In this document: in pieces, positions 12,283 to 48,793 of the stretch | Layout: each line of letters opens with the position of its first letter | How positions within the stretch are numbered: position 1 is the first letter of the stretch | NCBI GenBank assembly: GCA_958009085.1 | Contig: OY253682.1 | Location: forward strand, 310,001-374,000 | DNA from: Protoeuglena noctilucae | Taxonomy: Eukaryota | Direction of reading: 5' to 3' | DNA length: 64,000 nt | The notes under the pieces: generated by a model | Told to the model about the DNA's origin: nothing | The model's database searches: none | Seen by the model: only the letters and a program-made list of their open reading frames with translations | Position numbers and translations under genes: made by a program

Positions 12283-13768
12283 GGCGGTCGCAATACGACG
12301 CGCCGCACGCCACGTGTTGGCACGCCGCCCCGTCGCATCGCGTCTCGATGATGCGTTGGCTCTGTCGCCCCGGGAAGAGGGCAGCGGTTCCGCACGCTCG
12401 CATAGGCCAAGCGGAGCCGCGATAACATGCCGGCGCGCCGCCCTCTTCGTCCCTGTCGTGCAAACATTATCCTGACCCTGCCTACTCCAGCTCCCAGCGG
12501 CACTCGGCCGCACCACGCCATGCCTGGCACGGCGCGCTATCGCTACTGCAACTGGGACAGCAGTTTTGTTCCGCAGCCGTCCCCAGCACCACTGAATTGT
12601 GAAAGTCAAAACAGGTCCCGCCAGCTCTTCCGGCTCTGGGCAGCTGGTATGCAGCATTTGGTCTCCCTGCCCGCTGTTGTGACCCGCGCAGCCCTCGGCT
12701 CGGCGGAGGGAGGCGAGCGGGGCTTCTCTGGCATTGCGTTTTCCTGCGCGCCCAGTCATGAGCTTCCTGTCGCGCGAGATAGGCCGCCCCTGCGCCGGCA
12801 TCGCTAAGATAGTCGTATCCTGGAGCTGGCAGTCGCTGTCCGCGCCCAGGAAGCGCTCTGGTTTGTCTGGAAAAGCGCGAGAGACCAGAGTTCGGCGCGT
12901 TTCTGCGGAGCCGCGGCGCTGCGCACCAACGCCTTCCGCCTGGGAGCTGCCATTGATCTATTGTTTCTGCCGTGAGCGTTGCGGGGTGGGCCAGAGGCCT
13001 CGTATGGCTCCCGGGCGTTGCCGGGCTTCTCGCCCCTGAGCCGGCGTTCCTGAGCAGCCCAGGTGCGTCTCTCCGCCAGCATCAGGTCGTTCGTTCCACG
13101 ATAATGCTGGGGAACAGGCCTCGCGGGGGCTGAGCCCCGCATGCGGGCACGCAGGCGTGTCTTGGACTCGCCGGTCGCTTTTCCACTTCTGGGGCCTTCC
13201 GGGCGGTGCGCCGACGCGCACAGACGTGTATTTCCCTTCAATTATCTCGCGACTGCGAGGCGGGGCATCGCGGCTGGCCCGATGAGCCCGGAAACTCGCT
13301 TTTCCGACCTTTTCCCGGCGACTGCTCGGGGGAGCCGGCGAACCGGGGAGCCGTGGACACGGCTGGTTTTGCGTGTCATGTTCAGGGCCATCGCGTAGGC
13401 CTGCGCGCCAATCCTTGCGGCTCTCTGCCCGCACCCCACCAGAACCGGGCCACGCGCCCCGGGGGGATTCCTGGCCCCCCCGTCGCTGTAGCGGCGTTGT
13501 TTATGGATAGGAGCTTCCTGCCGCGCCCTCTCGCTGGCGTCCGGGCTCTCGGGGGAGCGCCTCGGGGCGTCCATGAAGCAGGTTCCCGGGCTTGTCTTTG
13601 CTGGCCCCCTGCGCACGCCGGGGCCCCGGTCGCACCGCGCGCCCTCTTCGCTTCATTCTTTGCATTTATCTCGTGCGGCGGAGAGCCTCTCATGGCCGCC
13701 TCGGTGCCTCTGCGCGGACCGCAGGGGCACTCAGGCTTGTCGCTCCTCCCCGCGCGCAGGCGTTCACG

Positions 13769-14230
13769 ATGGACGCGGACGCCGATGCCGCGGACGCCCT
13801 TCAATTCCTCAGCGCCCCGGCTCCCCTGGAGCACGGCGCCGGGGTCGGGGCGGCTCCGGCGGGCGGGGCAGAGGGCGCCCCCGCGCTGGCCCCAATTGTC
13901 GAGCGGCTCAAGTGGGTGCAGTGCGACGCATGCCGCAAGTGGCGCATGATCCCCGCGTACATCGACGAGAACGACCTGCCCCAGAACTGGACCTGCCGGG
14001 ACAACCAGTGGGACCCGCTGCACAACACCTGCGAGGCGAGCCTGGGCACGCTTTGCCACGCACCCGGCCAGGCAGCCCGGCCGCGACGCCCCGCGGCGCA
14101 CGCTCACGGTCTACCCGCACTCCACCCGCAGGCGATTGAGCAAGGGGAGGACGAGCCTGACCACATCACGAATCCGCATCTGGCGGCGGCGCTCCTGCAG
14201 GGAGCCGCAGAGGCCGAGGCAGCGGCAGCT

Positions 14231-14267
<37 letters not shown>

Positions 14268-29400: not shown

Positions 29401-30738
29401 ATGCCGCGCATCGCGCCCCTTGTTGCGCTGCTGTTCGCGTCTCTTGCGCTCGTAATCGTCGGCATCGTCTCGGCTGTGACGAGCATGACCTCGGGCAGCC
29501 GGAGCGGCAGCTTCCCCACCTTCGCAGCGACGCTGGCGGTCTTCGGTGGCATCTTGATGATCTACAGGTGACCAGACACAATATTGGACGGCTGGCTTCC
29601 CTCCAGGTATTCGCATCATCCCCGTATGCGGGGCTAGCACGATCCCTGCTTCCATGCCCTCGCAGTCTCGGGCACCTGCTCTTCCTGTGGATTATGGCTT
29701 ACCGATGGACGGGGAGAGGGACTCCACGCGAGGTGAGATGCTTTTGGGGCTTCGCAACCCTGCCTCTAAGCTGCGGGGTCACGCCGAGCTGTGACCAGCC
29801 AACCTCCCCTGCCAGGAGCCCGTGGAGCGCATCGAGCGCGGGGAGCACTTCCACGTGGGATCACTCGTGATTAATCCTGTGCGGTGAGGGGCCGGATGAA
29901 TCAGTGAGGGAAGGGAAGGCGACGTTCAGAATGAGCTGCTGCCATCTCTGCTTTCGGCGCCTCTGCGACGTTCGATTTCTTCACCGTTCCAGGAAGGAGG
30001 TGGATGTGCGAGCGCGTCTTGCGGAGGACATCCTTCGCCGGCAGAGCCGGCGCCCTGGGGTCGCACGGGCCAGCGACAGCACGGGGCTGCCCAGGGAGGT
30101 CCCCGATTTCGGGAGCGGCGACATCACTTACGCCATTCCAATCGAGTCCGTCGTGCCGTGCGCATCGTGCCTCGAGGAGGGCAGAGAGGTGTCTGCTGCT
30201 TGCCGATGCGGAACGTGATGCGCAGGGATGACTGGTTTTGTTCGGCTATGCTTAATGGACGAGGCACTTCACACCCTTCGCCTCTGCGTTTCCTCAGACT
30301 TGGGTGTGTCGGTCGTGCGGGAGAGGCTGCCCCAAGGGCCACGTCCAGTTCCCGTCCGCCCGCACGTCTGGCACAGAGGACCGCCCCGATCGTGAGCTGC
30401 CCGTGTCACTGCCGGTGGACGCCACGAGCGACGACGCAGGCGCAGCTTCCCAGCACACGCGTCCCCCGCTGCTCCCCACGGCCAGCCAGGAGCCCTGCAC
30501 GACGTGCGGGTGGGGCTGCAGCACGCCAGCACACCGACACTGGCGGCAGGCCGGCAGCGCCAACCAGGGGCCGTGCGCCTCCGTGGGGTCATTGCAGTCG
30601 GTCTGCTCTCATTCCCGCCGCTCGTCCCTCGCCCCGCTGCCCTCGTGGCTGTCGCGGCAGAGGGTGCACGTGGGAGCCGGGTGCAGGGCAGCGGAGGGGG
30701 ATGTGGAGATGGGGGGCGCGCGCGGTGGCCCCCCTTGA
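29401..30738 (+). CDS. Membrane protein (two N-terminal TM helices) with Cys/His motif, paralogue 2
   Basis: MPRIAPLVALLFASLALVIVGIVSAV...FAATLAVFGGILMIY|SLGHLLFLW..|..VGSLVINPVR|..YAIPIESVVPCASCLEEGRE|TWVCRSCGRGCPKGH...EPCTTCGW...GDVEMG. Ends in TGA. Confidence 0.65.
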
Positions 30739-30967
30739 CGGAGATTGCAGCTTGCGGACAGCGCTTCGGTGGGGACTGATCAGCCCTGGCTAGCACGCGT
30801 TCTAGATTAGACTCGCCGCAGTTGTGGTCGTGGCCAAGCGCACTGCAAGCAGCCATCATATGTTTTCAATCCCACCAGAGCCCTGGCAGGTCCGCGACAT
30901 AGAATACGCAGCCGCTGCGGTGGCATGCGGGAGCTACCAGCAAGCCAGCACGCAGCAACATCTGCCC

Positions 30968-31585
30968 TCAGACGGCCTGGTTGATGAGGTTGTTGCCGCC
31001 GAAACCGAAGCCGCCGCCCGACACGGCGTTGATCTGCGGAAGCGACACAGCGCTGGCTCTAGCCATGCATAATGAAACGCCTGCTCTGCCGGAAGCTCTC
31101 TCGACGGAGCACGAAGGTACGCTTGGCGCCCAGCGATGCAGTGAAATCGAAAACCTGGCAACACGGTTGCGCACCTGGCCCACGCCGCCGTAGCCGCCGT
31201 AGCCGCCATAGGGGTATCCGTAGCCCCCGTAGTAGCCGCCGTAGAACGGGCGCCCGTACCCGTACCCGCCATGCCACCAGTTCAGGGCGCGCCCGGGGCC
31301 GTCGACCTCCGAGATAGCTCCGACGGGACCCTCGAGGGCACCTGCGAGCTCCGTGAGTGCCGATACGATGATGGAAAGGTACCTCGAGCGGGAATTTCCC
31401 TAACCACCGTGCTTCGCATCCCCCTCCACAAGACCGGCTCCTAGCCACGCAGAGACCCGCAGCCACACCGCCGTCGTCTCGGACGGTCATGTTGTGCCAG
31501 GCGCGCCCCCGATTGGCCACTCACCGAGCGCGGCGGTGGCCAGGAGGGCGGCCAGGGCCGCCAGGACCAGGAGTGCGGCGCGCAT
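30968..31585 (-). CDS. Secreted Gly/Tyr-rich pre-pro-peptide A (~97 aa)
   Basis: Exons 31585-31525, 31341-31175, 31033-30968: MRAALLVLAALAALLATAAL|GALEGPVGAISEVDGPG-RAL-NWWHGGYGYGRPFYGGYYGGYGYPYGGYGGYGGVGQ|INAVSGGGFGFGGNNLINQAV*. GT-AG introns keep the frame. Confidence 0.85.
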
Positions 31586-34439
31586 CGTCGACGGTTCTTC
31601 GAGGGCGAGGGAGGGCGCGAACGATGGGTTTCGATCGGATACTGCGGACGGAGCTCGCGTCGGTGCCGGCTAGAGGGCTGACGAGCCGGGCCCGCGGCGT
31701 CCGACCTGCAGGTCATGCGGCACACCGCCCCGCGCCTGCGTTGACGGAGACGGTGCTGCGGTCATGCAGACCTGCCATCGACTGGTGTTGGGCCTGAACG
31801 AGCTGCCGAGATGCCGAGGAGGATGCGGGAGGGGCGCGGCGGGTCATGGCACGCACTGTGCTGCAGCTGTCGCCCTTGCCCTCGCCGCGCCTCTCCGGCG
31901 CCCACCGAGGGCCCAAGACATCGCGACCAGTAGATGCGGCGGCTAAAAGCGATTGCTTGGCTTCCCCGTGGCGCAGCAGTGCAGGGATTGCTGGGCGTGG
32001 CTCGCGCATGCCGGGCTGCCAGCGAGCGTGGGCCGATGGCCCGATGGCCGGGCACGCAGCGAGTGAGGTGACATGGCCAGTTGCTGCCGACGCTCCGCTC
32101 GGAGAGGTGCTAAGAGATATGTGAGGATTGGGCCTTCAATGCCGTCACTAGGGGCAGCTAAAGGCTACGCGCTAGGACAAGTAGCTCCTTGGCAGGTCGT
32201 CGAGAGTGGACGGGTCTGGACCCGCGGCAGACCATGGGTGCAACCATGGCGCCGTGGCCCAGCCCCGTGCGCTGGCGGTGGGTCTTCGGTCTCCGGTCCC
32301 CTGCTCCGTGGCGAGCCGCCTCAGAGCGCCTGGTTGATGGCGTTGTTGCCGCCGAAGCCGAAGCCGCCCGACAGCGCGTTGATCTGCAGATCAGGGCGGG
32401 TGGCAGGTTTTGGCAGGCTGAGGCCCCTCGTCAGCCAGACTTTCCCCTTGCAGCGCAGCGCAGGGAGCGAGCCATGCGCCTTAGGCGTGCGGAACAGGGG
32501 CGCCAGTTGGGCAGAGCAGTCGGTCTGCTCACCTGGCCCAGGCCCCCGCCGTAGCCGCCGTAGCCGTAGCCACCGTAGCCGTATCCACGGCCCCCGCCAA
32601 CAGCCTGCGAGGGGACAAAGAGGGAACTGCCAGGATGACGTGGCTGCGTGGGGTGAGGCGGGGTCGGTCCCAGCTCCGCTGCGCCTCATTGCTCTCGGAC
32701 CTGGTTGATGAGGTTGTTGCCGCCGAAGCCCCCTCCCGACAGTGCGTTGATCTGCAGGGGACCAAGAGCGCCTGTGGCATTGCGTTGCATTCAAGCAGCG
32801 CGTACAGGCGCAGGTCAGGCACTCATGAGCTCCCTCGGCACCATCCACCGCGCTTAGCCATGTCACGCGACTTGCCTGCCCGAGCCCGCCGCCGTAGCCG
32901 CCGTAGCCGCCGCCGACGGCCTGGTTGATGAGGTTGTTGCCGCCAAAGCCACCGCCGGCCAGAGAGCTGCGAGCCGTGGCCGGGGGCGGCGCGTCCTGCC
33001 AGCGACTGCTCGCTGCCGTGTGCTGCCGAAGCGCGTCGCATGGCCTCATCGCTCGTGCGCAAAGCCTTGGCACTGCAAAGCGCGCTCTCGCATCTCACTT
33101 GATCTGGCCGAGCTGGGCCAGCTGGCGACCGGGCGCCTCCGGGACGACGGCGTCGGCTGCGGTAGCGACGAGGGGCGGCGAGATCGTGGGGCGGCGACAG
33201 CGCGGGGCGGGAGGTGGGGCTGTGCCATGCAGCCACAGGCGCAGGTGCTGCCCGTGGCGCAGGGCGAGATCGGCAGAGCTGCGGGGACCCGCTGCGGCGA
33301 CATGCAGACCGAGACATGCGAGCGCAAATGCGCGTCCGCCGAGCCCGGCCCCGCGGCCCGCGCGCCCGACCCGGGAAGTGCTCGGGGGTGCGGACCGTCT
33401 CCGCGCCGCGCGCGTGCGAGACGGGAACGAGCGCGCGTCGCGACCGGCGTAGCGAGCTATGCAACCGCCGATGAGACCCTCCCGCGCGCTGCTCCCCCGC
33501 TCCCCGGCGCGGTCGCCCGGCCCCCGAGGCTGGACACCCAAGCACTCCGCTCGGCCTCGGCGCGCCGGATCCGCGGCGCGCGCCGGCGGGCGATACGCGC
33601 CGGCATCGCGCGCGCATCCCCTCACCGCACGCGAGCCCGACCAGGGCTGCCGCCATCGCCGCGGCGAGGGCCGCCTTGAGCATGCGGAGGGCCATGGTGC
33701 TGGTGGTGGTCGGCTGGAGAGGGGAGGGGCAGGGGGCGAATGTGCGGTGAGAAGGAGGACTGGGGCGTATATGAGCACCTTGGGCGCCGGGCCGCGGTGG
33801 ACAGCGCACGGTCAGACGGCCGACGGCGCCCCATCACCATGTGTCATGGGTCAGTCAGCCAGGAAGCGAGAGTTTCTAAGATAGCTTGGCCTTGCTGGGT
33901 ATACGGCATGTGATCCAACAAGCAGAGGTTGTCGTTTCAAGTTTTTACATCCAGCAGCGCCCACGCCAAGACGTTCTGGCAAGAGCCGTGCCAGCCTGGG
34001 AGGCCTGATTCCCTCCCAGTGCTTGCTTGCCTGGCGCTGATCGTCAATAAGTGACCGAGCCATCTCTGCTAGGCTTCTGTTGACATAGACGTTGTCTGTC
34101 GCCCGCTGGCCCACCCAGAGCGCTCGGTTCCAGCAGGGAGCTTGTCGGCATCCCGCGCCTTCTGCGGCGGACAAGGGGGAGCAGGATGTGGGACAGGACC
34201 ACGCAGGGGCTCAAGGCGGATGGCTGTCAGATAGATTACGGGAAAGCCGGTGCGTGCACGCCCACTTCTCATGCGTCGCCGCCCCACGTGCCGCACTCGG
34301 GCATGCTATCGCACGATGGTCGACATTGGATGCTGTTGATGCGGCTGAGCGCGCTGCGCCGCGGTGGCAGCGCGCACATTCCGAGACGGCCGGCTCGCGA
34401 CGGTAACTCCGATTCCACGCAGACTACTGGGACCAGCGG
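31456..34439. repeat. Large inverted repeat, left arm (2984 bp)
   Basis: Reverse complement of 37011-39994. Mirrored ORFs in the track have identical translations and coordinates summing to 71450. Both ends were checked base by base. Confidence 0.95.
32321..33695 (-). CDS. Secreted GQIN/NNLINQ-repeat Gly/Tyr-rich pre-pro-peptide B (~134 aa), left-arm copy
   Basis: Mirror image of the six-exon gene at 37755-39129. Confidence 0.85.
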
Positions 34440-35705
34440 TACACGGAGCGACCAGACGCATACGACTGGGTGAGGAGCGCCCTGATGAGCCGCTGAAGGC
34501 ATCCGCAGCGGTCGGGCCGTCGTACACAATGCGTGTCGAGACTGCAGCAGCTATTATGCGATGGTTCTCGCCCGCAGTGTGACTCGTGGGACAGAATGAA
34601 GCCGATTTTAGAGATGTTGCTTCCCAAGGACGCCTCGATCCTCCAGGCGAGCTCGCTGCAGCTGAAACAATGCGGGCAGTGCTGCGTGATGTGACTTCTT
34701 GACGTGCAAAGGCAACATTTGCGCTCCGTGCTCTGCAGGTCGGCGTGGGCAACAGCACCATGCAGATTGACATGGCACGCGATGGCTACCGCCACATTGA
34801 GAACACGGACATCTCGTCAGGTGCGGCGGCTGCCCTGGGAGGGAGCCTGGCTCATGTGGCGTTTGCGATTCGCCACATCAGCTCTGCAGCGTCTTTCCCG
34901 CCGTCTAGACTGCAGTGGTGGTCGACAACATGAACGCGAGCAACGAGTTCCCTGAAGTGCTGACGAATCGCGTTTCCGACTGCACCAACATGCCCGAGGT
35001 GAGCTGCCGGCATCTGACCCTGGCGACGCACTGCTGATGGCTCTGCGCTTTTTCCTGCATTGTGCTCTTCAAAGCCCTCGCCATTGCCACTCCGAGGGTG
35101 CGTCGTCCTGCTGCAGTATGCGGACGGTTCGTACGACATTGTGCTCGACAAGGGGACCATCGATGCGCTTCTGTGGTCCATGGACCCTGCGGGCAACGTG
35201 TACCGACTCCTGTCAGAGGCCAGCAGGGTGGTGAAGGAGGGGGGCACGTTCATGTACATTGGGTACGGGGTCCCAGACGCGCGCCTGCACCACCTCGCGC
35301 ACCCGGACCACCACTTTGACGTGCAGTTCTGGACCATCAATAAGCTGCCGGAGTTTATGCTCATCCAGGCCAAGGCGAGCCGCCGCGTGCATGAGGCTGG
35401 CTGTGCAGCGGCCATCGCCAGCTGCCGGCGCGATGGCAGAGCTCCGATGACCACCGCAGAAGCAAGGGACGCGGCTGCCGCCCGCCATCATCGAGGGGCC
35501 TTTCGATGCGCGGGACCGCGAGGCGGTTTTAAAGCACTCGGCGACCTATGGGATGCCCAAGGGCTACGAGCGCATGCCACGGCACCACTACATCTACGTG
35601 TGCCGGCGCAAGCCGGGGCCGAAGCCGGAGCAGCTGGGGCAGGTTCACGCGGTTGACCTGGGCTGGAATACGGAAGCAGCGGGTGCACCTCCGGGCGAGG
35701 GGTGA
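34186..35705 (+). CDS. Class I SAM-dependent methyltransferase, EEF1AKMT4/METTL13-like
   Basis: Spliced: IDYGKA|DYWDQRYTERPDAYDW|...ASILQ|VGVGNSTMQIDMARDGYRHIENTDISS|...DCTNMPE|YADGSYDIVLDKGTIDALL...EASRVVKEGGTFMYIGYGVP...|...HYIYVCRRK...GEG*. TGTAA at 35750 could be the chlorophyte poly(A) signal. Confidence 0.85.
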
Positions 35706-36095
35706 AGTAAGCATGGTTGCCCTGCGCTGCGACAGCCCAGCATAGCACGTGTAACCTGAAGAAGAACCCTAACCTGAGCATTTTGCAGCCATGATGCTTC
35801 CCCGGCATGCACTGATGGGGCACGGCCACGCCGTGTGTACAGGATGCCCCATCCCCGCCCGCTTAGCTAACTACGGCATCTCTGCACAAATAAGCTAGCG
35901 CGTCTCGACCCCCGACATCCATGCCCGACATCTGTGCCCGTGCGTCTGCCCGGCGATGTGTGGGCGTGCCGTGGGAGGTGTGCAGGCCCTGCAGTCGTCC
36001 TCTTCGGGCCTGCGGCAGACAGACGCAGATTGCATCGGCAAACCCATCGCATCATCGCAGAGCGTGCCTCTCCCGCGCCCGATCCTCCGCCCACG

Positions 36096-36591
36096 ATGCT
36101 CGCCATGCTGGTGCTCCTGGCCCTGGCCGCCCTCGCGGCTTCTGGCGCGCGCGGTGAGTGGGGAAGGAGTGCGCGAGAACCACGGCTGTCGCGACAGTAG
36201 CGGCGTCCGCGTGCGGGCAAGCATCGGGACCTTGAGCCTTGCTACGAGGGTGCACCCTCGTTGCCGGAGCTGGGGCCCGCGCAAGAGCAGAGCACCGCAC
36301 GCTTTACCGCGGACGATCCCACAACATCTCTTCAAGTCACATATGCATTCTCTACCCGAAGCATTGCAGCAATCCTGCCGGCCGAAGTCCCTCCCCGCAG
36401 GGCAACCGCAAGGCCCCGCCTTTGCCGCGTCCCGCAAGCTCAACTTGCTGGCCACAACGCCCTTCACGTACGGGACGGCCTCGCCCTACAACCAGCCCCT
36501 CTACGTCAGCTACCCCTTTGACTACGGCACCTACGCCCTGACGACCCCGACGACTGTGCTCAACCGCTCCACGCCCGATTACTACATCTGA
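36096..36591 (+). CDS. Secreted Tyr/Thr/Pro-rich pre-pro-peptide C
   Basis: Exons 36096-36153 and 36401-36591: MLAMLVLLALAALAASGAR|GQPQGPAFAAS-RKL-NLLATTPFTYGTASPYNQPLYVSYPFDYGTYALTTPTTVLNRSTPDYYI*. Confidence 0.8.
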
Positions 36592-37010
36592 GCTGCCACA
36601 AGACGCGCAGGTAGGTGGCACTCTGGCTTGGAGATCGCGCTTGTTCAAGATGGTCCGGCACGCGGCTCCCCTGACGTGCTTCGTGCTGTGGCTTGCGTCG
36701 CAGCAACCTCCCTACAGCCTGGACTGGATGGTGGCAATCCGGGCATATCAAGACCGCCCGCAGGCTGCATGGCCAGCGACATCGCACAGAGGAGAGCGAC
36801 GGCGCGCGGGGTTAGAATCAAGCCTAGCAGGGACGCTGGAGCAGCCCAGCATACCCGTGCGCACATCCGTGCGCTAGCCCTCGCCGCGCGTTGAATGCCG
36901 AAGTCTCCCGATCGATTGCCAGACCTTCGCTGTGCCAAGGAATACAGAGGCGGCTGCTTAACTGACTGACCCACGACACATGGTGACCAGGCGTCATTGG
37001 CCGTCCTGGG

Positions 37011-37264
37011 CCGCTGGTCCCAGTAGTCTGCGTGGAATCGGAGTTACCGTCGCGAGCCGGCCGTCTCGGAATGTGCGCGCTGCCACCGCGGCGCAGCGCG
37101 CTCAGCCGCATCAACAGCATCCAATGTCGACCATCGTGCGATAGCATGCCCGAGTGCGGCACGTGGGGCGGCGACGCATGAGAAGTGGGCGTGCACGCAC
37201 CGGCTTTCCCGTAATCTATCTGACAGCCATCCGCCTTGAGCCCCTGCGTGGTCCTGTCCCACAT
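37011..37264 (-). pseudogene. Truncated 5' fragment of the methyltransferase gene
   Basis: Copy of exon 1, intron 1 and the start of exon 2 (..DYWDQR), cut at the inner repeat boundary. Confidence 0.75.
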
Positions 37265-37754
37265 CCTGCTCCCCCTTGTCCGCCGCAGAAGGCGCGGGAT
37301 GCCGACAAGCTCCCTGCTGGAACCGAGCGCTCTGGGTGGGCCAGCGGGCGACAGACAACGTCTATGTCAACAGAAGCCTAGCAGAGATGGCTCGGTCACT
37401 TATTGACGATCAGCGCCAGGCAAGCAAGCACTGGGAGGGAATCAGGCCTCCCAGGCTGGCACGGCTCTTGCCAGAACGTCTTGGCGTGGGCGCTGCTGGA
37501 TGTAAAAACTTGAAACGACAACCTCTGCTTGTTGGATCACATGCCGTATACCCAGCAAGGCCAAGCTATCTTAGAAACTCTCGCTTCCTGGCTGACTGAC
37601 CCATGACACATGGTGATGGGGCGCCGTCGGCCGTCTGACCGTGCGCTGTCCACCGCGGCCCGGCGCCCAAGGTGCTCATATACGCCCCAGTCCTCCTTCT
37701 CACCGCACATTCGCCCCCTGCCCCTCCCCTCTCCAGCCGACCACCACCAGCACC

Positions 37755-39129
37755 ATGGCCCTCCGCATGCTCAAGGCGGCCCTCGCCGCGGCGATGGCGG
37801 CAGCCCTGGTCGGGCTCGCGTGCGGTGAGGGGATGCGCGCGCGATGCCGGCGCGTATCGCCCGCCGGCGCGCGCCGCGGATCCGGCGCGCCGAGGCCGAG
37901 CGGAGTGCTTGGGTGTCCAGCCTCGGGGGCCGGGCGACCGCGCCGGGGAGCGGGGGAGCAGCGCGCGGGAGGGTCTCATCGGCGGTTGCATAGCTCGCTA
38001 CGCCGGTCGCGACGCGCGCTCGTTCCCGTCTCGCACGCGCGCGGCGCGGAGACGGTCCGCACCCCCGAGCACTTCCCGGGTCGGGCGCGCGGGCCGCGGG
38101 GCCGGGCTCGGCGGACGCGCATTTGCGCTCGCATGTCTCGGTCTGCATGTCGCCGCAGCGGGTCCCCGCAGCTCTGCCGATCTCGCCCTGCGCCACGGGC
38201 AGCACCTGCGCCTGTGGCTGCATGGCACAGCCCCACCTCCCGCCCCGCGCTGTCGCCGCCCCACGATCTCGCCGCCCCTCGTCGCTACCGCAGCCGACGC
38301 CGTCGTCCCGGAGGCGCCCGGTCGCCAGCTGGCCCAGCTCGGCCAGATCAAGTGAGATGCGAGAGCGCGCTTTGCAGTGCCAAGGCTTTGCGCACGAGCG
38401 ATGAGGCCATGCGACGCGCTTCGGCAGCACACGGCAGCGAGCAGTCGCTGGCAGGACGCGCCGCCCCCGGCCACGGCTCGCAGCTCTCTGGCCGGCGGTG
38501 GCTTTGGCGGCAACAACCTCATCAACCAGGCCGTCGGCGGCGGCTACGGCGGCTACGGCGGCGGGCTCGGGCAGGCAAGTCGCGTGACATGGCTAAGCGC
38601 GGTGGATGGTGCCGAGGGAGCTCATGAGTGCCTGACCTGCGCCTGTACGCGCTGCTTGAATGCAACGCAATGCCACAGGCGCTCTTGGTCCCCTGCAGAT
38701 CAACGCACTGTCGGGAGGGGGCTTCGGCGGCAACAACCTCATCAACCAGGTCCGAGAGCAATGAGGCGCAGCGGAGCTGGGACCGACCCCGCCTCACCCC
38801 ACGCAGCCACGTCATCCTGGCAGTTCCCTCTTTGTCCCCTCGCAGGCTGTTGGCGGGGGCCGTGGATACGGCTACGGTGGCTACGGCTACGGCGGCTACG
38901 GCGGGGGCCTGGGCCAGGTGAGCAGACCGACTGCTCTGCCCAACTGGCGCCCCTGTTCCGCACGCCTAAGGCGCATGGCTCGCTCCCTGCGCTGCGCTGC
39001 AAGGGGAAAGTCTGGCTGACGAGGGGCCTCAGCCTGCCAAAACCTGCCACCCGCCCTGATCTGCAGATCAACGCGCTGTCGGGCGGCTTCGGCTTCGGCG
39101 GCAACAACGCCATCAACCAGGCGCTCTGA
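37755..39129 (+). CDS. Secreted GQIN/NNLINQ-repeat Gly/Tyr-rich pre-pro-peptide B' (~134 aa), right-arm copy
   Basis: Exons 37755-37824, 38294-38351, 38484-38574 (GC donor), 38699-38749, 38846-38917, 39067-39129: MALRMLKAALAAAMAAALVGLAC|ADAVVPEAPG-RQL-AQLGQI|NSLAGGGFGGNNLINQAVGGGYGGYGGGLGQ|INALSGGGFGGNNLINQ|AVGGGRGYGYGGYGYGGYGGGLGQ|INALSGGFGFGGNNAINQAL*. Confidence 0.85.
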
Positions 39130-39864
39130 GGCGGCTCGCCACGGAGCAGGGGACCGGAGACCGAAGACCCACCGCCAGCGCACGGGGCTGGGCCACGGCG
39201 CCATGGTTGCACCCATGGTCTGCCGCGGGTCCAGACCCGTCCACTCTCGACGACCTGCCAAGGAGCTACTTGTCCTAGCGCGTAGCCTTTAGCTGCCCCT
39301 AGTGACGGCATTGAAGGCCCAATCCTCACATATCTCTTAGCACCTCTCCGAGCGGAGCGTCGGCAGCAACTGGCCATGTCACCTCACTCGCTGCGTGCCC
39401 GGCCATCGGGCCATCGGCCCACGCTCGCTGGCAGCCCGGCATGCGCGAGCCACGCCCAGCAATCCCTGCACTGCTGCGCCACGGGGAAGCCAAGCAATCG
39501 CTTTTAGCCGCCGCATCTACTGGTCGCGATGTCTTGGGCCCTCGGTGGGCGCCGGAGAGGCGCGGCGAGGGCAAGGGCGACAGCTGCAGCACAGTGCGTG
39601 CCATGACCCGCCGCGCCCCTCCCGCATCCTCCTCGGCATCTCGGCAGCTCGTTCAGGCCCAACACCAGTCGATGGCAGGTCTGCATGACCGCAGCACCGT
39701 CTCCGTCAACGCAGGCGCGGGGCGGTGTGCCGCATGACCTGCAGGTCGGACGCCGCGGGCCCGGCTCGTCAGCCCTCTAGCCGGCACCGACGCGAGCTCC
39801 GTCCGCAGTATCCGATCGAAACCCATCGTTCGCGCCCTCCCTCGCCCTCGAAGAACCGTCGACG

Positions 39865-40367
39865 ATGCGCGCCGCACTCCTGGTCCTGGCGGCCCTGGCC
39901 GCCCTCCTGGCCACCGCCGCGCTCGGTGAGTGGCCAATCGGGGGCGCGCCTGGCACAACATGACCGTCCGAGACGACGGCGGTGTGGCTGCGGGAGCGGA
40001 GGATGCCCTTTCGGTGCTGGAGATTGTTGCGGTTACGGACCATGCGGCGGGCTACTTTCTAGCTCATACAGCGGCAGAATACCACTGCGACGTGCCCTGT
40101 GCTCCTCTCACACCTACCGCGTTTCGTGTTTGGCTTCAAAGCGCGCGTTCGCCGCATCCACCCTCTACTGCTGCCCACGCGGTCGCAGGTGCCGTGCCGC
40201 CGGCAGACGGATCCCCCGAGGTGGACGGCGTCGGAGGCCGCAAGCTCAACTGGTTCCACCGCCCGTGGACGTTGGGCTACGGGTACCCCGTCACCTATAG
40301 CACCTATGGCTACCCGTACGGTGGCGCATTCTACGGCGTCGGCTACGGCGTCGGCTACGTCGTGTGA
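39865..40367 (+). CDS. Secreted Gly/Tyr-rich pre-pro-peptide D (~79 aa)
   Basis: Exons 39865-39925 (identical to exon 1 of A) and 40189-40367: GAVPPADGSPEVDGVGG-RKL-NWFHRPWTLGYGYPVTYSTYGYPYGGAFYGVGYGVGYVV*. Confidence 0.85.
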
Positions 40368-40878
40368 GTAAGCGCCAAGCACCGTCCACCCCCCAGCGCA
40401 TGAGCTCACGTTGGCACAGCTTGCCAGCATCCCAGCAGCAAGCGTGCGATGCGAGTTTGCGATGCGCTGCGCCCCGTGCAGCTGACGGAGTTTCCAGGGA
40501 CGGTCGGGTTGGAGGCGTCCCCAGCCGCTTCGAGAGTCTTGCATGAGCATACGCTGCGTCGTTTGTGCGCCTACGCTTCGCATGTTAGCGCCTGTGCTGC
40601 GCATGTCAACTGCTAGCATGCCACTGCCCTGCTGCGTTGAATTGCCGTTGTTGCCACGCACCCGGGCAGAAAACGAGGCGCAAGGCGCATCATAGCGATC
40701 TGCCGGCGTCGAGATCGCGGCTCTTCGCCGGGGGAAGGCGCGCTGCTGGTGAGATGGGAGTCTGACGCTGATGTCAGCGCATGTCTGGCGGAGAGGCGCG
40801 CTTAGGAGGTCCGGGGACATCCGTTCCAAGGACAACCCGCTTCCTACCCCCACGCGTCCGCCCCTCCGGCCATCCAAG

Positions 40879-42577
40879 ATGTCGCGCCGCCTCTCCCTGG
40901 TGGCCCTCGTGGCCGCCGCGGTCCTCCTGTCCACGTTCGCCCATGGTGAGCATCTTGTGTCGCTTGTTTACATGAGTCAAATGGGGCCAGCGAGCGGCCG
41001 TCCCCCGCCGGCGGCTCTCGACGCGGGGACCGGCACCTTTGAGCCAGCCTGCCCCTGCCCCGATTGCCGCGGAGAGGCGCCCGGGGCGTCTGGGACGACC
41101 GCATATCCCCAAATCGATGCTGGTTTTAAGCATGGCTGTGGTCCTTGACGCGATTGGTGCATGCGTCGCGCCGCCGGGGTCCGCGTCCCCGGGCCTGGGC
41201 CCGTCGATCTCGCGCATCCGCCCCGAGGAGACCCCGCTCGCTATCCACATCCGCTAGGCCCTCGAATTACTGCCCATCGGTGTTGCGTGACCTGCCCCTC
41301 TCGCTTCTCCGGGGCCGAAAATTCGGCCGCCCTGCCCTGCCCCCAGCCGCGCCCGCCTGGGCGGTGACGGGCAGCCTCCTGGCCACGCGCCGTCTCGCTC
41401 AGCCTCGTACCAACGCCGTCAACCAGGTGGGGCCCCGCCGTTGGCCGGGGGGATCGCTGCGCGGCGCCCACGCAGCCGCGACATGCCAGCACGCTGGCCC
41501 ACGCAGGCCACGGGCAACCGGGGCGGCGGTGGCACGGGACAGATCAAGTGAGATGCGCCATTGCCATCGGCATGTGCCACCCACCCGCCGCGAGCTTGCT
41601 ACGCCAACAGTGGGACCTCATTTCGTGCCGCAGCGCCAACAACGGCGGGACCGGCAACAACCTCATCAACCAGGCGAGTGCGGGCCTGTACCCGACCATA
41701 GCCATGCGCATGGGTCGAGATAGGTGCTGGACCCCTCGACATCCAGCCGCTGGTCGCCGCAGGCGGTGGGCAACCGGGGTGGCGGCACGGGCCAGATCAA
41801 CGCTAACGCCGGCGGCGGCACCGGCAACAACCTCATCAACCAGGTGCGGTGGAGTTTGGACTGTTTCCCAGACGGCCCTGCCTGCGCCAAGCCGTGCAGT
41901 GACGACGCCACTGCATCGCGCGGTCGCAGGCCGTGGGCAACCGGGGCGGTGGCCTGGGCCAGATCAACGCCAACACGGGCGGCGGCGCCGGCGGCAACAA
42001 CCTCATTAACCAGGTGCGCGGCGGATGTTGAGATAGCTATGTGCCACGCTAGCCCTGGTCGGTGACTGGTCGGTGAGGATTTTGCTGCAATGCGGGCCCT
42101 CAGGCCGTGGGCAACCGGGGTGGCGGCACGGGCCAGATCAACGCTAACGCCGGCGGCGGTACCGGCAACAACCTCATCAACCAGGTGCGCAGCGGATGCT
42201 CACTTAGCCATGCCACGCTGGCACTGGTCGGTGAGGACGTAACCACGATGCGGGCCCTCAGGCCGTGGGTGGTAACCGGGGCGGCGGCCTGGGCCAGATC
42301 AACGCCAACACTGGCGGTGCCCGCGGCAACAACCTCGTCAACCAGGTGCGGGGCGGGTGCAGGTGGTGGCAGTCGGTGATGGCGCAATCTGAACGGTCTC
42401 TTCCACCCTTCACGCTTCTCACAGGCTGTCGGCGGCAACCGCGGCGGCACGGGCCAGATCAAGTGAGAGGGAGCACGGGCCAGGGGTTGTCTAACGGATC
42501 CCTCAGCTGCGCAGAGCGTGTGACCACCGCGCTTTCATTGTCACCCTCACAGCGCCAACGCCGGCCGCCGCGGCTAA
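40879..42577 (+). CDS. Secreted Gly/Asn-rich tandem-repeat pre-pro-protein E (mostly one repeat per exon)
   Basis: Exons 40879-40945, 41347-41426, 41507-41547, 41634-41673, 41763-41843, 41930-42013, 42104-42184, 42262-42345, 42425-42462, 42553-42577: MSRRLSLVALVAAAVLLSTFAH|AAPAWAVTGSLLAT-RRL-AQPRTNAVNQ|, then about 5.5 copies of AVGNRGGG(T/L)GQINAN(A/T)GGGxGNNLINQ, ending ANAGRRG*. Confidence 0.85.
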
Positions 42578-43508
42578 GCTCCCACGCACGGTCGCCAGGT
42601 CTTCCAGGGACGGCGCGTCATCTACTGAGGCTGCTTTGGCGCATGCGTTGGCTGAATTGTCGCAAAGGGCAGCTGGCCGCTTGAATATGCGATGCAAAGC
42701 AGACGGCACCGACACTCAGGCACGCAGAGCTGTGACAGCGCGTCGGGAGACACCCTGCTCTGGCAGCACGCGATAGCAGCATGCCTGCACGCTCGCCGGC
42801 TGTCTCGGAGGGCGCTGCTGAGGGTGTGAAGCTGGCCGCGTGGCCCTCGGTGCGTCGACGCTGGCTCATGCTGCGATGGCGCCCTCGCCCGTCTGGGCTT
42901 AGCTGGTATGCCTGCATGTCGCCTGAGATTGCCGGCCGCACGGAGAGACGAAGAGCTGGTTTTCAGTCCGCTGGTGCGGGGCACACATGGCCACAGCACA
43001 GCGTCAGGTCAACTGGCAGCTTTGAGCGGTGTCAGGCTGGCAAGCTGGATGTGATCATGGCTGAATCTGGGCTTGATAAGCCAGGGCCGGCTTGAAGGGT
43101 CGCTGGGGAGCTAGCAGGTGCATGCCACGCACCGTGCGACCCAGGCGCGTGCTGGCGGGCCACGTCAAACCCTGGGCTCTCCAAAGCACCAGGCGCCGGT
43201 CGGCGCATCTGGTAAACATGCAGCCTAGGGCTCGCATCGACGAAGGCTCGGCAGGGTGTCGAGGGACTCCTTGCTGCAGCGAGCGATGGTCACGCGGTGG
43301 CCAGCAGGGTCGCGCAGTGTGCCGTTGTCGCGACAGAGGGGACAGGCGGGCTTGTAGAGGTTCTGAGAGACTGGCATGCCTGAAACATGTCGTTTACCGT
43401 GCCGTCCGTGGCTCCGCATGCTGTGCATGACTTCAAACGCAGGTGCCAGCGCAAGTGCTCGCATGCCAAGCAGCTTCTCCATACTGCAAGCCTCGCGTCA
43501 AGGCCTCT

Positions 43509-44352
43509 TCAGAGGGCACTGCGAGCGAAGAAGGACGGATGGGGAAGGTGTGGCCAAGTGCCATCGCTGCCGAGCAAGCGCAGGGGTCGTCGCGAACAGG
43601 CGCATGCGAAAAAGGCTCACTTGACCTGGGCGACGCCACCGCCAAAGCCGCCGTAGCCGCCATACGGGAAGCCGTAGCCGTAGCCGTAGCCGCCGTAAGG
43701 GAAACCGTACCCGCCGAAGCCGCCGTAGCCGCCAACGGCCTGCGCCGACGCCCCAGCACTTGTGAAAAGCCGCGGTTGAGGAACGACTCTGTTCCAAACC
43801 TGCGCCTAGCTCGCCTGGTTGATGAGGTTGTTGCCGCCGCCGAACCAGTAGTTCAGCCTGCGGCCGTGCATGCCGTCGCCCTGGACACCGTCGTCCGCCA
43901 TGACGGGCATGGCTGCGGGAGGGGTCAGCAGGCTGGGCGCTCATTCGTCAGCTATGCGGGCCGACGAGTTCCTGGGTACCGGCAGACGGGGCTCGCAGCC
44001 GGCAGCGAGCCCTGCAGATGGCCCAGAGAGCCTAGGCCCTGCAGCCGTGTCTAGCGCTTCTAGATCACCTCCAGCAACAAAACCTCGCGCAAATGATTTT
44101 TTATAGCAATTTATATGGGTGGGGGGAGCAGAGTCGAAGACGTGCCGCAACGAAGGAGTGCGGGGCAGCAGGCCCCAACCGTCCTTTCCGCCCCGCGCGT
44201 CCAGCGACGAGGGCAGAGGCACGCCCGATGCAGCCATCGCATTTGAAACAACAATACTAGACGCGTGCGAGATGCTCACCGTGCGCGATCGCCCCCATCA
44301 GGGCGAGGGCGAGGACCGCCGCGAGGGCGACGCGGGAGAGGGCGAACGTCAT
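43509..44352 (-). CDS. Secreted Gly/Tyr/Phe-rich pre-pro-peptide F
   Basis: Exons 44352-44280, 43912-43815 (GC donor), 43739-43621, 43518-43509: MTFALSRVALAAVLALALMGAIAH|AMPVMADDGVQGDGMHG-RRL-NYWFGGGNNLINQ|AVGGYGGFGGYGFPYGGYGYGYGFPYGGYGGFGGGVAQV|NAL*. Confidence 0.8.
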
Positions 44353-44766
44353 CTTGGCAGACTGCGGCTAGCTACGTGAGAGTTCCTGGATGGAAATTGA
44401 CCAGGATCGAGGAGCGCGCCCGCGGAAGTAGGGCACGCGGCCCCCCCTCTGAAAGTTGCATCACCTGTCTGGCGCAGCCACGTCGTCGCGCTCTGCGGTT
44501 GGACGTGGCCACCATGCCACCGCTGAGGTCGCGGGCTGGGGCGCCGGGGACCCGCGCTGGAGGGAGGTGGGCACCCAGAGGGCGCCAATGGGTGCTGCCA
44601 CGCGGTGCGATGAGCAGAGCTGGTGGCCGTGTCACTGGAGTGTCACTAGATGGCTGGCGGAGGCCGTTCGACAAAAGCTTTCAAGCGGCTGTGCTTTGGC
44701 CAAGGCAGCGCGCTGGCGGCATGCAGGGTCGGCCCGAACGCTCCAGGCAGACCTAGAGGGCTTGCT

Positions 44767-45670
44767 TCAGTAGAAACCCCGGCGACCGGCGAGAGCGTTG
44801 ATCTGCGCGGGTCAAGAGCAGCGCTGTCTGCCTGCCGTGTGGCGGCCTGGCAGCCCTGGAGCCGCCACGCCCTGGAGCCGCCACGCCCGCGAGCGCATCC
44901 GCCGTCACCTGGCCCACGCCACCGCCGTAGCCACCACCCACGGCCTGGTTGATGAGGTTGTTGCCGCCGAAGCCACCGCCGGAGAGAGCGTTGATCTGCA
45001 GGGGAAAGCGGCCAGGTTGCCGTGCGTCAGCCATTGCCAATCAGTCTGCGCTACGGCCCCGCCCCATAGTGGCCAAGCCCACCTGGCCCAGACCGCCACC
45101 GTAGCCACCGTAGCCACCGTAGCCACCGTAGCCGCCGAAGCCGCCGCCGACGGCCTGCAGGCGGGGGGGGGGGGGGGGGGGGAGCAGCAGGCTGCGCGAG
45201 GCCCACATGTCGTGCTGCGGGTCCCGGCAAGCCGCGCAGCGGCTGAAGCCTCACCTGGTTGATGAGGTTATTGCCTCCAAAGCCATACGCCGTCAGCTGC
45301 CTCCCCGCAAGGCCATCCGGCTCCGCTGCGGGCGGAATGGGTTCCATGGTCAGCAGAGGCAGGTGGTCCCTGTGCGGCGCCGTCGTTCCATCAGGACCCT
45401 CGCCCGTCCTGTATCGTCTTAATTCGCTGAAAATGAGCGCGACAAGATGAGACAAGGTCAGCGGGGTGTTCTGGGATGGCCGCACGACACAAAAGCCGAC
45501 CCGGGAGATCTCGGGCGCGATGCAGGGCGCGCAGGACCTATCCGAGGTCGAACTCGCCATGATGGATGTCGAAGACCAAGCTAGATCGCAGCGCGCACCT
45601 TGGACGAGGCTTCCGAGGGCGATGAGGGCCGCGAGCGCCCACAGCTGCAGGAGGAAGGAAGCCGTGGCTG
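44767..45670 (-). CDS. Secreted GQIN/NNLINQ-repeat pre-pro-peptide G (start codon not located)
   Basis: Exons ~45670-45599, 45325-45255, 45154-45083, 44995-44909, 44802-44767: ..FLLQLWALAALIALGSLVQ|AEPDGLAG-RQL-TAYGFGGNNLINQ|AVGGGFGGYGGYGGYGGYGGGLGQ|INALSGGGFGGNNLINQAVGGGYGGGVGQ|INALAGRRGFY*. No in-frame ATG in the signal exon, so an upstream micro-exon is needed. Confidence 0.7.
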
Positions 45671-45961
45671 CTGGGAGGGAGGAGGCGACGATTCCGGGAC
45701 TCGGATCACCAAATTGCGTTCTAGACTCGTCGATCCACGCTGCTTTCAGGTTGCAACGAAGGGCGAGACCGCCACCTCAGGCGCCAGACATGCAGCGACA
45801 GCACCGTCTGACCGTGTCAGGGCCCCCAGAGTCGATAGAAAACCCATAGAAGCATTGAACAGCAGCGGAGGTGAAGCGCGCTAGGCGCACCAAGACGGTC
45901 CTGGAAGCCGCTGGCCGCACGCGAGTCGGCGGGCGCTGCATGCCGAGCGGGGCCTGCAAGC

Positions 45962-48793
45962 TTACATCAGGCGGATCTCCGCCATCGCCTCCTTGCGCCG
46001 GTGGGAATACCAGGCCACCAGCCGCCCCGCGCCCGCCGTTCCGGGCAGGCAGACGTCGACGCCGATGACCGCGTCCGCCAGCACCGGCTCCACAGAGCCC
46101 CGGGACGCCCCAAAGCCCGAGATGCTGGAAACGGTGCGCAGGAGTCGCGATCCGGGAGTCGAGTGCACGCCGCGAGGCCGCGAGACGGCCGTGTCGGCCT
46201 CGGCCTGCGCCTGGAGGAGGGGCGAGGGGGTGGGTGCGCCCAGCAACTGGCACCGCTGCGCTCGGCCCCGTGAACGCCCCCCGGCCTCACCTGCCCCCCC
46301 TGCTGCTCCTCCATGACCCAGCGCAGGTTGCCGCGGAGTCGCACGGGGCCCCAGAGCTGTTGGCACACGTCCAGCGTCACTGCGCTGGCGAGCCGCCCTC
46401 CGCACATGTCCACATCCGGGCTCAGCGCCGACCTGGCGCCGCTGCGGCCACCACGAGAGTCGCACGTTGCCGTCGACGGACTCTGCCACAGCTGTGGAAG
46501 CTCCACAGCAATCCATTCGCAGTGCCTTAGCCAGTCCCATGGGCCCACGCAGGCGGCTGCATGCACCCACCCAGGGTTGAGGACGGGCGCCGGGAGGCCG
46601 ACGTCCGCGCGCACGGACAGGGACGTGAAGTCCAGGAAAGGCCGCGAGAAGCCCCCGAGCTGCGCCGAGACCATCCCAGACGCAAACACGCGCGCCGACG
46701 ACGCCGACACCTTCTCCCTGCAAAGGGGTTGCAAGATCGTCGCTCATTTGTGTGGTTTGAAGTCTCACTTCCAGTCGATCGCCCAGCCAACCCGGAAGCG
46801 AAGTCTGAACGAGGCGCTTGCCCCGTCCCGCTCAGCGCAGGTCACCCTGCCGTATCGTCACCCGCCCGCGTGAGCATCCCAGTGACACTCGCCTGACTCC
46901 GTTGCTGGCCGATCGCACGAGCTGCAGGGCCCTGGTCATGACCGCCGTGGCTGCGGACCCTTGGGCCTTGCCCTCCGCCTCCTCGGTCAGCGTCGGGAAG
47001 GCGCGGTGGCGTGGCGCGCCGGACAAAGGCGTCCCGACCGACAGGCCGCACGCGCCGCCGACGGACAGGTGCGGCCGGGGCACGAACACCGACATCGGGA
47101 AGGGCGCCTTGTGGGGCTTGAGCTCCTGCTCCAGGTGCAGCTCGCCCGGGTCGCTGGAATCTGCAAGAAACATGAGGAAAGCACGATTGCCGCGAGGTGT
47201 CTGGCAGAGACGCATGGCTGCCCTGAAGAGGGCGGGATTCAGCAAACGTACGTGATTCACATCATTGGCCACATAAGCAAGTGCTTTCATCACGCAGAAA
47301 CACCTCGCTTCATGCCCAAGAGGTCGACTCACCGTTCCCCTCCAGTATGGGCATCTCGCCCTCTCCCAGGGGCACCGACGTCCGCTTCACTCGCCCCGGC
47401 GACGCCCGCGCTCCCCCGCTGCCCCCGGAGCCGCCCTGTCCGCCCAGCAGTGTCACGGACCCCTCCGCCATCACCGCGCCCTGCAGCGCCGCCCGCGCCG
47501 CCCCGCGCTCCCCCAGCGCGAGCCCTCGCCGGCGCTCCACCACGCGCGCCGGCGCGATCTCCCCGTCGGACTGCGATCCCCGCGAGGGGCTGTCGTCCGA
47601 TCGAGGCGCAGCGGGGCCGCGCGACGGGGACGCCTTGCTCGGCGGGGTCAAGCGGATGGCCCCGAGGCGATACGTGATGCCGGCCCGGCCCGACTTGACG
47701 GGCCGCAGGTCCAGGGACACTTGCGAGGTCGGGGTCGTGACGGCGCCCGAGCCGTGGGACCGCATGCGCTCATTGAAAGACGCCGACAGCTCCCACCGGT
47801 GCCCCAGCACCGCGGGTGCCTGCGTGCAGGTGCACCACCCTGTTGGAAGCCCACGCGAGAGCCGGTAGGGCTTTGCGCTAAGCGATGTGTGGACGCGTGT
47901 TGAGGCTGAGCACGGCAAGGAGTGACGTTCGGCGCTCGGACTGGCACCTCTGTTCACGCGCCATGTCAACCGATGCAAGTGTTAAACGCCATCCATTCAT
48001 AACAATCGTCACGTCGCGACGCATGGCACGTCCCGTGCGCTCACCTTGAGCGTCAGGCGCCCCGCCGCCCGCCTGGGCCGCGACGCCTCAGGCATGGCAT
48101 CTCCACGGACGAACGCGGCTGCGGCGCGCATCACGCGCGGCAAGTCATCCGCTCGGCCCAGGTGTAGCTTCCCCAGCGCCTTGGCGCCCCACGGCAGCCG
48201 GGCCACGCCCTTGGCTGCCAACGCGTAATTCTCCACATCCCCCAGCACCTGCATGTGGCGCAGACCTTGCCGGAGCTGGCCCCAGGCGCGCTGGGCCCTG
48301 CGAAGAGCGAGGCGGTGCGGAGAGGTGAAGCGGCCGGGCTGCAGAGCGGCCGGGGGCGGGGGACAGAGCGCTGGCAGCCCTTGCCGGAGGCGCCCGACGA
48401 CGTTGCACCATGCAGCCTGGTTGCCGATGCTCGCGAGGGCGCGGTCGAGGACGAGTCCGCCGTCTTCTAGCGCAAAGGACGGGACGCACGGCAGGTCGCC
48501 GTAGCTCTGCGCCAGGAGAACCTGCTGTTCGCGGGAGAGCCCCGAGGGTCGCGTCAGCTGCGTCGGCGCGGGGTCGCCGGGGGGCAGCTGCACGACGCCC
48601 GTGAGGTCCGAGGGCGAAGATACTTGCTGCGAGGATTGAGACGATGCATCGGCTCAGAGTCGCGCGGGGAAGGCACGTGGACTGGCAGGGGGCGCGGTCG
48701 GCAGCTTGCCTGGCCCCAGAACTGCGCATCGATGCAAGATCGGACGCCTGTCACAGCCTCTCGGTGCTCGGGAACGATTGGCGACGATGGCAT
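45962..48793 (-). CDS. TGD4: TGD4-like (DUF3769) chloroplast outer-envelope lipid-transfer protein
   Basis: N-terminal VRSCIDAQFWGQ|QVSSPSDLTGVVQLPPGDPAPTQLTRPSGLSREQQV...PCVPSF and C-terminal CQQLWGPVRLR...RLVAWYSHRRKEAMAEIRLM* match the TGD4/DUF3769 pattern as I recall it. Confidence 0.75.

Follow-up and report, generated by a model that had tools for sequence, protein, structure and literature searches.

A cluster of genes for putatively secreted, glycine-rich repeat proteins in the green alga Protoeuglena noctilucae: candidate components of an extracellular layer

A stretch of 64,000 nucleotides (nt) of Protoeuglena noctilucae DNA (GenBank assembly GCA_958009085.1, contig OY253682.1, positions 310,001 to 374,000), hereafter the window, contains at 30968-45665 a 14.7-kb cluster of eight gene models, named A, B, C, B', D, E, F and G, of which seven are distinct. 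The cluster represents an expressed, lineage-restricted and undescribed repeat family, which is of a familiar general kind and has an unusually tidy exon-repeat design. As a tentative explanation, held with somewhat less than even confidence, the family would encode small secreted proteins that are processed from propeptides and self-assemble into an extracellular matrix or layer.

The region 30500-46400 was read in six-frame translation, and the gene models were then built from exon coordinates, by which all eight translate in frame. The eight genes counted in the original prediction, which was made from the sequence alone, are thus found as models in frame, but only seven are distinct, as B' is identical to B. 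The window is eukaryotic, with a high GC content of 63-73% per 2 kb. All 30 modelled introns end in an AG acceptor, with GT as the donor in 26 and GC in four, and the first intron lies in phase 1 directly after a hydrophobic first exon in every model. The four GC-AG introns are intron 3 of B, its copy in B', intron 4 of E and intron 2 of F; their donors, at 38575, 32875 (the copy), 41674 and 43814, read GCAAGT, GCGAGT or GCGAGC and always lie directly after ...CAG, and a listed RNA joint was found for none of the four.

The first exons encode 19-24 mostly hydrophobic residues, with a best 12-residue Kyte-Doolittle mean of 2.3-3.0 (8/8), and the term signal peptide is used here in the sense of hydrophobicity and layout only. 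A motif R-x-L follows 11-20 residues past the first exon in 8/8 models, usually as G-R-x-L and then Asn, Ala or Thr, and the form R-[AQKR]-L-[NAT] is present in all seven distinct genes. The piece that ends at R-x-L is acidic; all Asp and Glu residues lie upstream of this motif, except for two Asp in C, and downstream of it no model has any Cys, Lys or Glu. The mature parts comprise 39-167 amino acids (aa) and, except for E, contain 0-2 basic residues, with an isoelectric point (pI) of 5.5-9.2; the value for E is ~12. Gly accounts for 32-42% of A, B, E, F and G and for 23% of D, and C has little; Tyr reaches 23% in D, and Asn 22% in E. This layout is that of secreted pre-pro-proteins, as far as translations can indicate. 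Plastid targeting was considered and rejected, as the organism is a primary green alga and apparently no Phe-type motif follows the signal.

The repeat module consists of a QINA-type piece, a Gly loop and NNLINQAV. Full modules number one in A, three in B, five in E and one in G, which also has partial modules; F has partial modules only, and C and D have none. A DNA pattern for GNN[LA][IV]NQ gave 15 matches, all between 30977 and 45275, compared with 0 in 100 dinucleotide shuffles, and the module motif has no match in the 64-kb window outside the cluster. Between and beside the modules, runs of GGY, GGF or GYG occur in A, B, B', F and G, and GGG-type linkers in E; neither type occurs in C or D. 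In E, F and G, the part past R-x-L starts with a second half-module and ends with a first half-module.

Gene A (30968-31585, minus strand, 97 aa) consists of the signal exon, a Gly/Tyr-rich exon and one C-terminal module, encoded by exons at 31525-31585, 31175-31341 and 30968-31033 that are separated by GT-AG introns in phases 1 and 0. Gene B (32321-33695, minus, 134 aa) has three modules with GGY linkers between them and six exons, at 33626-33695, 33099-33156, 32876-32966, 32701-32751, 32533-32604 and 32321-32383, its intron 3 having the GC donor. The exact copy of B, gene B' (37755-39129, plus), has exons at 37755-37824, 38294-38351, 38484-38574, 38699-38749, 38846-38917 and 39067-39129. Gene C (36096-36591, plus, 82 aa; exons 36096-36153 and 36401-36591) has the signal exon, R-K-L and a Thr/Tyr/Pro-rich part without a module, and gene D (39865-40367, plus, 79 aa; exons 39865-39925 and 40189-40367) carries the signal exon of A followed by a Tyr/Gly/Val-rich part, also without a module. 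Gene E (40879-42577, plus, 206 aa) has 10 exons; its five full modules are joined by GNRGGG linkers, and it lacks Tyr. Gene F (43509-44352, minus, 99 aa) has a half-module, a linker rich in GY, GF and Pro, and a short QVNAL end; its exons are at 44280-44352, 43815-43912 and 43621-43739, with the GC donor in intron 2, and its last exon of 10 nt (43509-43518) is a guess made by analogy with the AA|GTGAG splice of B and E, the alternative being that the frame stops at 43618-43620. Gene G (44767-45665, minus), of 110 codons counted from an ACG, has a half-module, a GGY linker, a full module and a further half-module, encoded by exons at 45599-45665, 45255-45325, 45083-45154, 44909-44995 and 44767-44802.

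Most of what the original prediction had said about the proteins is borne out by these models. The shared architecture of a hydrophobic exon, a phase-1 intron and a piece ending in R-x-L recurs in all eight, with a piece of 11-20 aa, and the mature part is free of Cys in each. The proposed distribution of modules and linkers also holds, with GNRGGG and no Tyr in E, no module in C and D, and a mixture in A, B, F and G. The description of C and D needs revision in one respect: both lack the module as described, but C is rich in Thr, Tyr and Pro rather than Gly, and its second exon starts at 36401.

The introns follow the repeat closely. The 22 internal introns sit at three repeat positions, namely after NQ (10), after GQ (7) and at the QI-N or QV-N codon (5), where the third class cuts inside the Asn codon, so that the exons are equal to repeat pieces. 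In E the exon-plus-intron units form a tandem array with a period of 161-174 nt, and this array shows growth by duplication of units. Between these units the exons are 81-98% identical and the introns 53-70%; the exons are better preserved than the introns, and the coding part is therefore under constraint.

Evidence of transcription was obtained from three marine metatranscriptome runs of one study (X1-X3), in which 14-34% of the sampled words were found; DNA runs of one organism contained 99% of them, and RNA-labelled runs with the same species label (X8-X11) next to none. Read contigs of X1-X3 and of the DNA run X7 were aligned to 35900-45800, an interval that has gene A outside it. For G, record 13 of X2 (590 nt) aligns in pieces to 44576-44802, 44909-44995, 45254-45325 and 45599-45728, and exon 3 fits letters 315-385 of the same record, by which the fourth joint is implied. 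The joints 44802>44909, 44995>45083 and 45325>45599 were found in 2-3 RNA runs and are absent from X7, and a loose end of poly-T before 44667, which lies ~100 nt beyond the stop codon, likely marks the poly(A) site. In intron 2 of G there is also a run of ~20 G (45149-45196), at which reads seem to be cut and which is a possible sequencing trouble spot.

For B/B', the joint 38914>39064 (cut +3), corresponding to intron 5, was found in X3, where one side of the joint has just 27 letters, and introns 1, 4 and 5 are also covered by unspliced contigs. For C, record 14 of X3 aligns to 36400-36605 from its 20th letter onwards, which fits the acceptor at 36401. The 3' untranslated region of C contains a further intron at 36606-36758, with GT..AG ends, which is seen as the RNA joint 36605>36759 (cut +5). 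The 3' end of D is covered by record 12 of X2 on 40323-40497, and no joint for intron 1 of D is listed. Spliced transcripts, which the original prediction had named as a check, are thus present as RNA joints for G, one joint for B/B' and the acceptor of C, and transcription and splicing in natural seawater communities are thereby shown for G, B/B' and C at least. A transposon or simple-repeat artefact was rejected on account of the accurate splicing and the open frames.

The copy number of the family is shaped by a perfect inverted repeat, whose arms of 2,984 nt are 100% complementary and are separated by a spacer of 2,571 nt. Arm 1 (31456-34439) contains the first exon of A and gene B, and arm 2 (37011-39994) contains B' and the first exon of D; B and B' are identical because both lie within this repeat. 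At either outer end the repeat stops within a first intron, that of A on one side and that of D on the other, and A and D therefore share a promoter and signal exon and then diverge. Contigs of the DNA run break at 37011-37040 and 39965-39994, at the edges of the arm, as is expected for a true repeat. In X7 the contig depth rises from ~43.5 in the spacer to 105 in the arms and to 121-143 in the flanks, which departs from the expected 1:2:1; the structure may be heterogeneous, or depth taken from contigs may not be a good guide here. The spacer also holds a multi-exon methyltransferase-like gene at 34400-35700 (plus strand; 21.1 bits for Methyltransf_11, where the cut-off is 21.2), the 5' end of which lies in arm 1, so that arm 2 starts with a truncated copy of that end.

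The original prediction recognised no named family, and the searches agree with it. Pfam-A hmmscan of 11 exon translations and of the protein P0003 described below gave 0 families at E<=10, the Curlin repeat and plant glycine-rich protein models included. A profile made of 12 exon pieces was run against 5.8 billion proteins, where 8,000 candidates were scored, and gave four matches at E<=1, namely three open reading frames (ORFs) of the window and P0003. The corresponding search of 1.84 billion representative proteins gave four matches at E<=0.001, which were two ORFs of the window and the proteins P0006 and P0007, and the latter two were rejected as relatives because they are unrelated, spurious repeat proteins. 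When a 40-aa stretch around exon 3 of B' was compared with longer proteins, only the window's own unspliced ORF (P0001) was found, and a 30-aa exon query of the ESM Atlas gave no usable match. Among JGI metagenome contigs, 162 matches to a peptide pattern were obtained, of which 0 were confirmed, and a two-part DNA pattern had 0 matches. A 23-nt string had four single matches in prokaryote genomes, all in unrelated surroundings and regarded as chance, and the module motif strings do not occur in the literature searched. The protein databases use prokaryotic-style gene calls on genomic DNA, and intron-rich relatives are therefore easily missed, which makes such absence weak evidence.

The ENA protein P0003 is a relative that corresponds to an unspliced ORF; it has two modules and a linker of the TDPKKTG type, and it comes from another locus or organism. 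Loose ends and odd joints occur at repeat words (38507-39086) in both DNA and RNA runs, one DNA loose end encodes a linker very similar to that of P0003, and a paralogue-like RNA contig with a depth of ~103 is present in X3. These observations indicate further paralogues elsewhere in the genome.

In the mechanism that we propose, the N-terminal hydrophobic exon would direct entry into the endoplasmic reticulum (ER), and the acidic propiece of 11-20 aa would be lost at the conserved (G)-R-x-L, by which an almost uncharged polypeptide of 39-167 aa, composed of Gly, Asn/Gln and Tyr/Phe, would be released. In the least certain step, the QINA.. and NNLINQAV strands, with the Gly loop between them, would pair as Asn/Gln-laddered beta structure within or between chains, and the GGY, GYP and GFP linkers might contribute aromatic stacking or cross-links formed by Tyr oxidation. 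In the end, the members would assemble together into an extracellular layer that is insoluble and could be a cell coat, the wall of a cyst or resting stage, or an adhesive. The number of modules would vary through tandem duplication of the exon-plus-intron unit, and the number of genes would have grown by local duplication, including the perfect 3-kb inverted repeat. Co-assembly in a coat, scale or cyst wall, beta-arch or amyloid structure, and dityrosine links, which had been suggested originally, may reasonably be proposed from composition. The composition fits insoluble structural Gly-rich proteins better than strongly cationic peptides, and the terminal half-modules of E, F and G would suit head-to-tail pairing. 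The assembly reading is preferred in view of the near-absence of charge, the shared module and these terminal half-modules.

Several points weigh against this reading. Defence peptides would be just as compatible with proteins this small, with an acidic propiece and with recent duplication inside a cluster. The R-x-L of B, F and G aligns with the GQIN half at the start of the module, where it may represent a variant of the first strand instead of a site of cleavage. Pfam searches of 60 long ORFs of the window revealed no oxidase, peroxidase or subtilase that could be a partner in processing or cross-linking. The Pfam and homology tests were made on single exons (24-62 aa). Gene E is covered only by unspliced, low-depth contigs of X1 (41397-41683 and 41675-41968), and gene F only by an unspliced RNA contig, also of X1 (43734-43961); X1 covers intergenic DNA too, and this cover is therefore uninformative on splicing. 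Gene G has no ATG; the position of the ATG of its relatives is occupied by ACG (45665-45663, minus strand), in the strong context gccACGg. Between this ACG and the upstream stop no ATG lies in frame, the only upstream ORF, at 45791, has four codons, and the ACG is retained in spliced RNA contigs of two runs. G either uses non-AUG initiation or is a transcribed pseudogene.

The main rival, which is likewise based on composition and was not considered in the original prediction, and which we consider rather unlikely, is that the genes encode Gly/Tyr-rich defence or allelopathic pre-pro-peptides, from which the acidic propiece is removed on secretion and which diversified by local duplication under pressure from bacteria, viruses or grazers. 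The small mature parts (39-167 aa), the conserved processing-like site preceded by an acidic propiece, the tight clustering and the very recent duplication would all be expected of such peptides, E is strongly basic with a pI of ~12, and the nlp-29 cluster of Caenorhabditis elegans is comparable (PMC2453101). However, the mature parts other than that of E have 0-2 basic residues and a pI of 5.5-9.2, unlike most cationic antimicrobial peptides (AMPs), and the shared module with terminal half-modules suggests mutual assembly rather than diversification towards targets.

A more specific version of the assembly reading would make the cluster a eukaryotic functional-amyloid-like system, in which the modules form a beta-solenoid-like fibre, E, F and G join head-to-tail by strand complementation, the Tyr-rich linkers together with C and D serve as cross-linkers or caps, and G is translated from its ACG. 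Taken as a whole, this elaboration is distinctly unlikely.

It is less probable still that these are expressed but dispensable orphan genes, which are partly decaying and whose apparent number may in part be an effect of the assembly. This would account for the missing ATG of G, the purely unspliced RNA of E and F, the 100% identity of B' with B, the uneven DNA depth and the near-absence of relatives in very large databases. On the other hand, all eight frames are open, the splice signals are intact in 30 of 30 introns, and the exons of E are kept well above its introns. Transcripts of G from natural samples show accurate splicing and polyadenylation, with the ACG kept in two RNA runs. The breaks in the DNA contigs coincide with the edges of the arms, which a real repeat would produce, and loose ends in DNA and RNA runs point to further paralogues.

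Signalling pro-peptides, that is, ligands processed by a protease of the site-1 protease (S1P) type like the RALFs of plants, are a very improbable alternative. The order of signal peptide, propiece and R-x-L-x matches the layout of S1P-processed RALFs (PMC11062432). Nevertheless, the proteins have neither Cys pairs nor a conserved receptor-binding core, and extremely low-complexity repeats in 0 to 5 modules are atypical of ligands. Ice-binding or surface-active proteins, in the form of Gly-rich polyproline-II bundles or of peptides active in foam and at interfaces, are equally hard to credit: the GGY/GGF triplet runs resemble the Gly-X-X repeats of snow-flea antifreeze proteins, and the organism belongs to the marine plankton, but nothing like the Asn/Gln module is known from those proteins, and no sign of a cold habitat came up, no search aimed at one having been made.

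The surroundings of the cluster help to place the organism. The neighbouring genes identified with Pfam are a plastid-type pyruvate kinase (10099-11499), a zf-CW and PWWP chromatin reader (13577-15226), a protein kinase (6153-7172, minus strand) and a WD40 protein (56778-57491); the other Pfam matches among the 60 long ORFs are one methyltransferase just under the cut-off and one sub-threshold DUF3769. A transcript-derived protein matches the pyruvate kinase exon at 10678-11430 with 100% identity, and the best named match of this enzyme is from Pedinophyceae sp. YPF-701 (72% identity), followed by trebouxiophytes (~65%). Judged from these identities, the alga is a marine core chlorophyte with no close sequenced relative in the database searched. 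At 18354-22166 on the plus strand, open frames of 721 and 548 aa with a GC skew of 0.25-0.32 and no Pfam match may belong to a gene for a large low-complexity protein.

Secreted Gly-rich structural proteins are well known from land plants, animals and bacteria, but hardly anything is known of the proteins that cover the cells of small marine green flagellates. The cluster provides concrete candidates that are expressed in nature and have a new repeat module and a conserved processing-like site, and its exon-equals-repeat architecture shows protein growth by duplication of exon units. Should the products prove to be defence peptides, planktonic chlorophytes would have yielded some of their first examples.

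Plant class I glycine-rich proteins (GRPs) have an N-terminal signal peptide followed by (GGX)n-type repeats with Tyr or Phe at X, and an extracellular structural role (PMC5298957). The algal proteins resemble such GRPs, for example PvGRP1.8 of bean, in the hydrophobic first exon (8/8) and in the GGY/GGF runs of A, B, F and G. They differ in giving 0 Pfam families per exon, in their much smaller size and in the acidic propiece with R-x-L, and in the Asn/Gln module QIN..NNLINQAV, which plant GRPs are not known to have.

With regard to diatoms, the Y-type cingulins are rich in Tyr, and a Tyr-rich cell-surface protein has reportedly been described in the diatom Amphora. In diatom wall proteins such as silaffins and cingulins, the signal peptide is followed shortly by an RXL proteolytic motif (PMC9650480), and the algal R-x-L, 11-20 residues past the first exon in 8/8, occupies a similar place. 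The algal proteins are unlike silaffins and cingulins in having neither the K(X)nK Lys-rich regions nor the Ser-richness that define those proteins (PMC9650480), with 0 Lys in their mature parts, and they come from a green alga with no link to silica. In plants, subtilases of the S1P type remove propeptides at RXXL or RXLX (PMC11062432), and a motif of this shape stands between propiece and mature part in 7/7 distinct genes.

The nlp-29 locus of C. elegans is a ~12-kb cluster of six genes for small secreted Gly/Tyr-rich AMPs that arose by recent local duplication (PMC2453101). The algal cluster, with eight genes over 14.7 kb and one duplicate at 100% identity, resembles the nlp-29 and cnc clusters, and the resemblance is one of kind only. 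Profile searches found no homology, and the algal proteins are mostly near-neutral and contain the Asn/Gln module.

The bacterial curli subunit CsgA, the chaplins and the Ustilago repellents are small secreted functional amyloids. The repeats of curli are 20-30 aa strand-loop-strand units rich in Gln, Asn and Gly, and its major and minor subunits are encoded together. The cluster differs from curli in that no exon matches Curlin_rpt (PF07012) at E<=10, and in its eukaryotic ER route and introns, with no machinery of the CsgG/E/F type. The G-x-G-N-N..Q appearance of the module is similar to that of curli repeats. If the module forms ordered beta assemblies, the family would be a rare eukaryotic algal counterpart of functional amyloids of the curli and chaplin type, and would offer a compact, charge-free building block for materials work.

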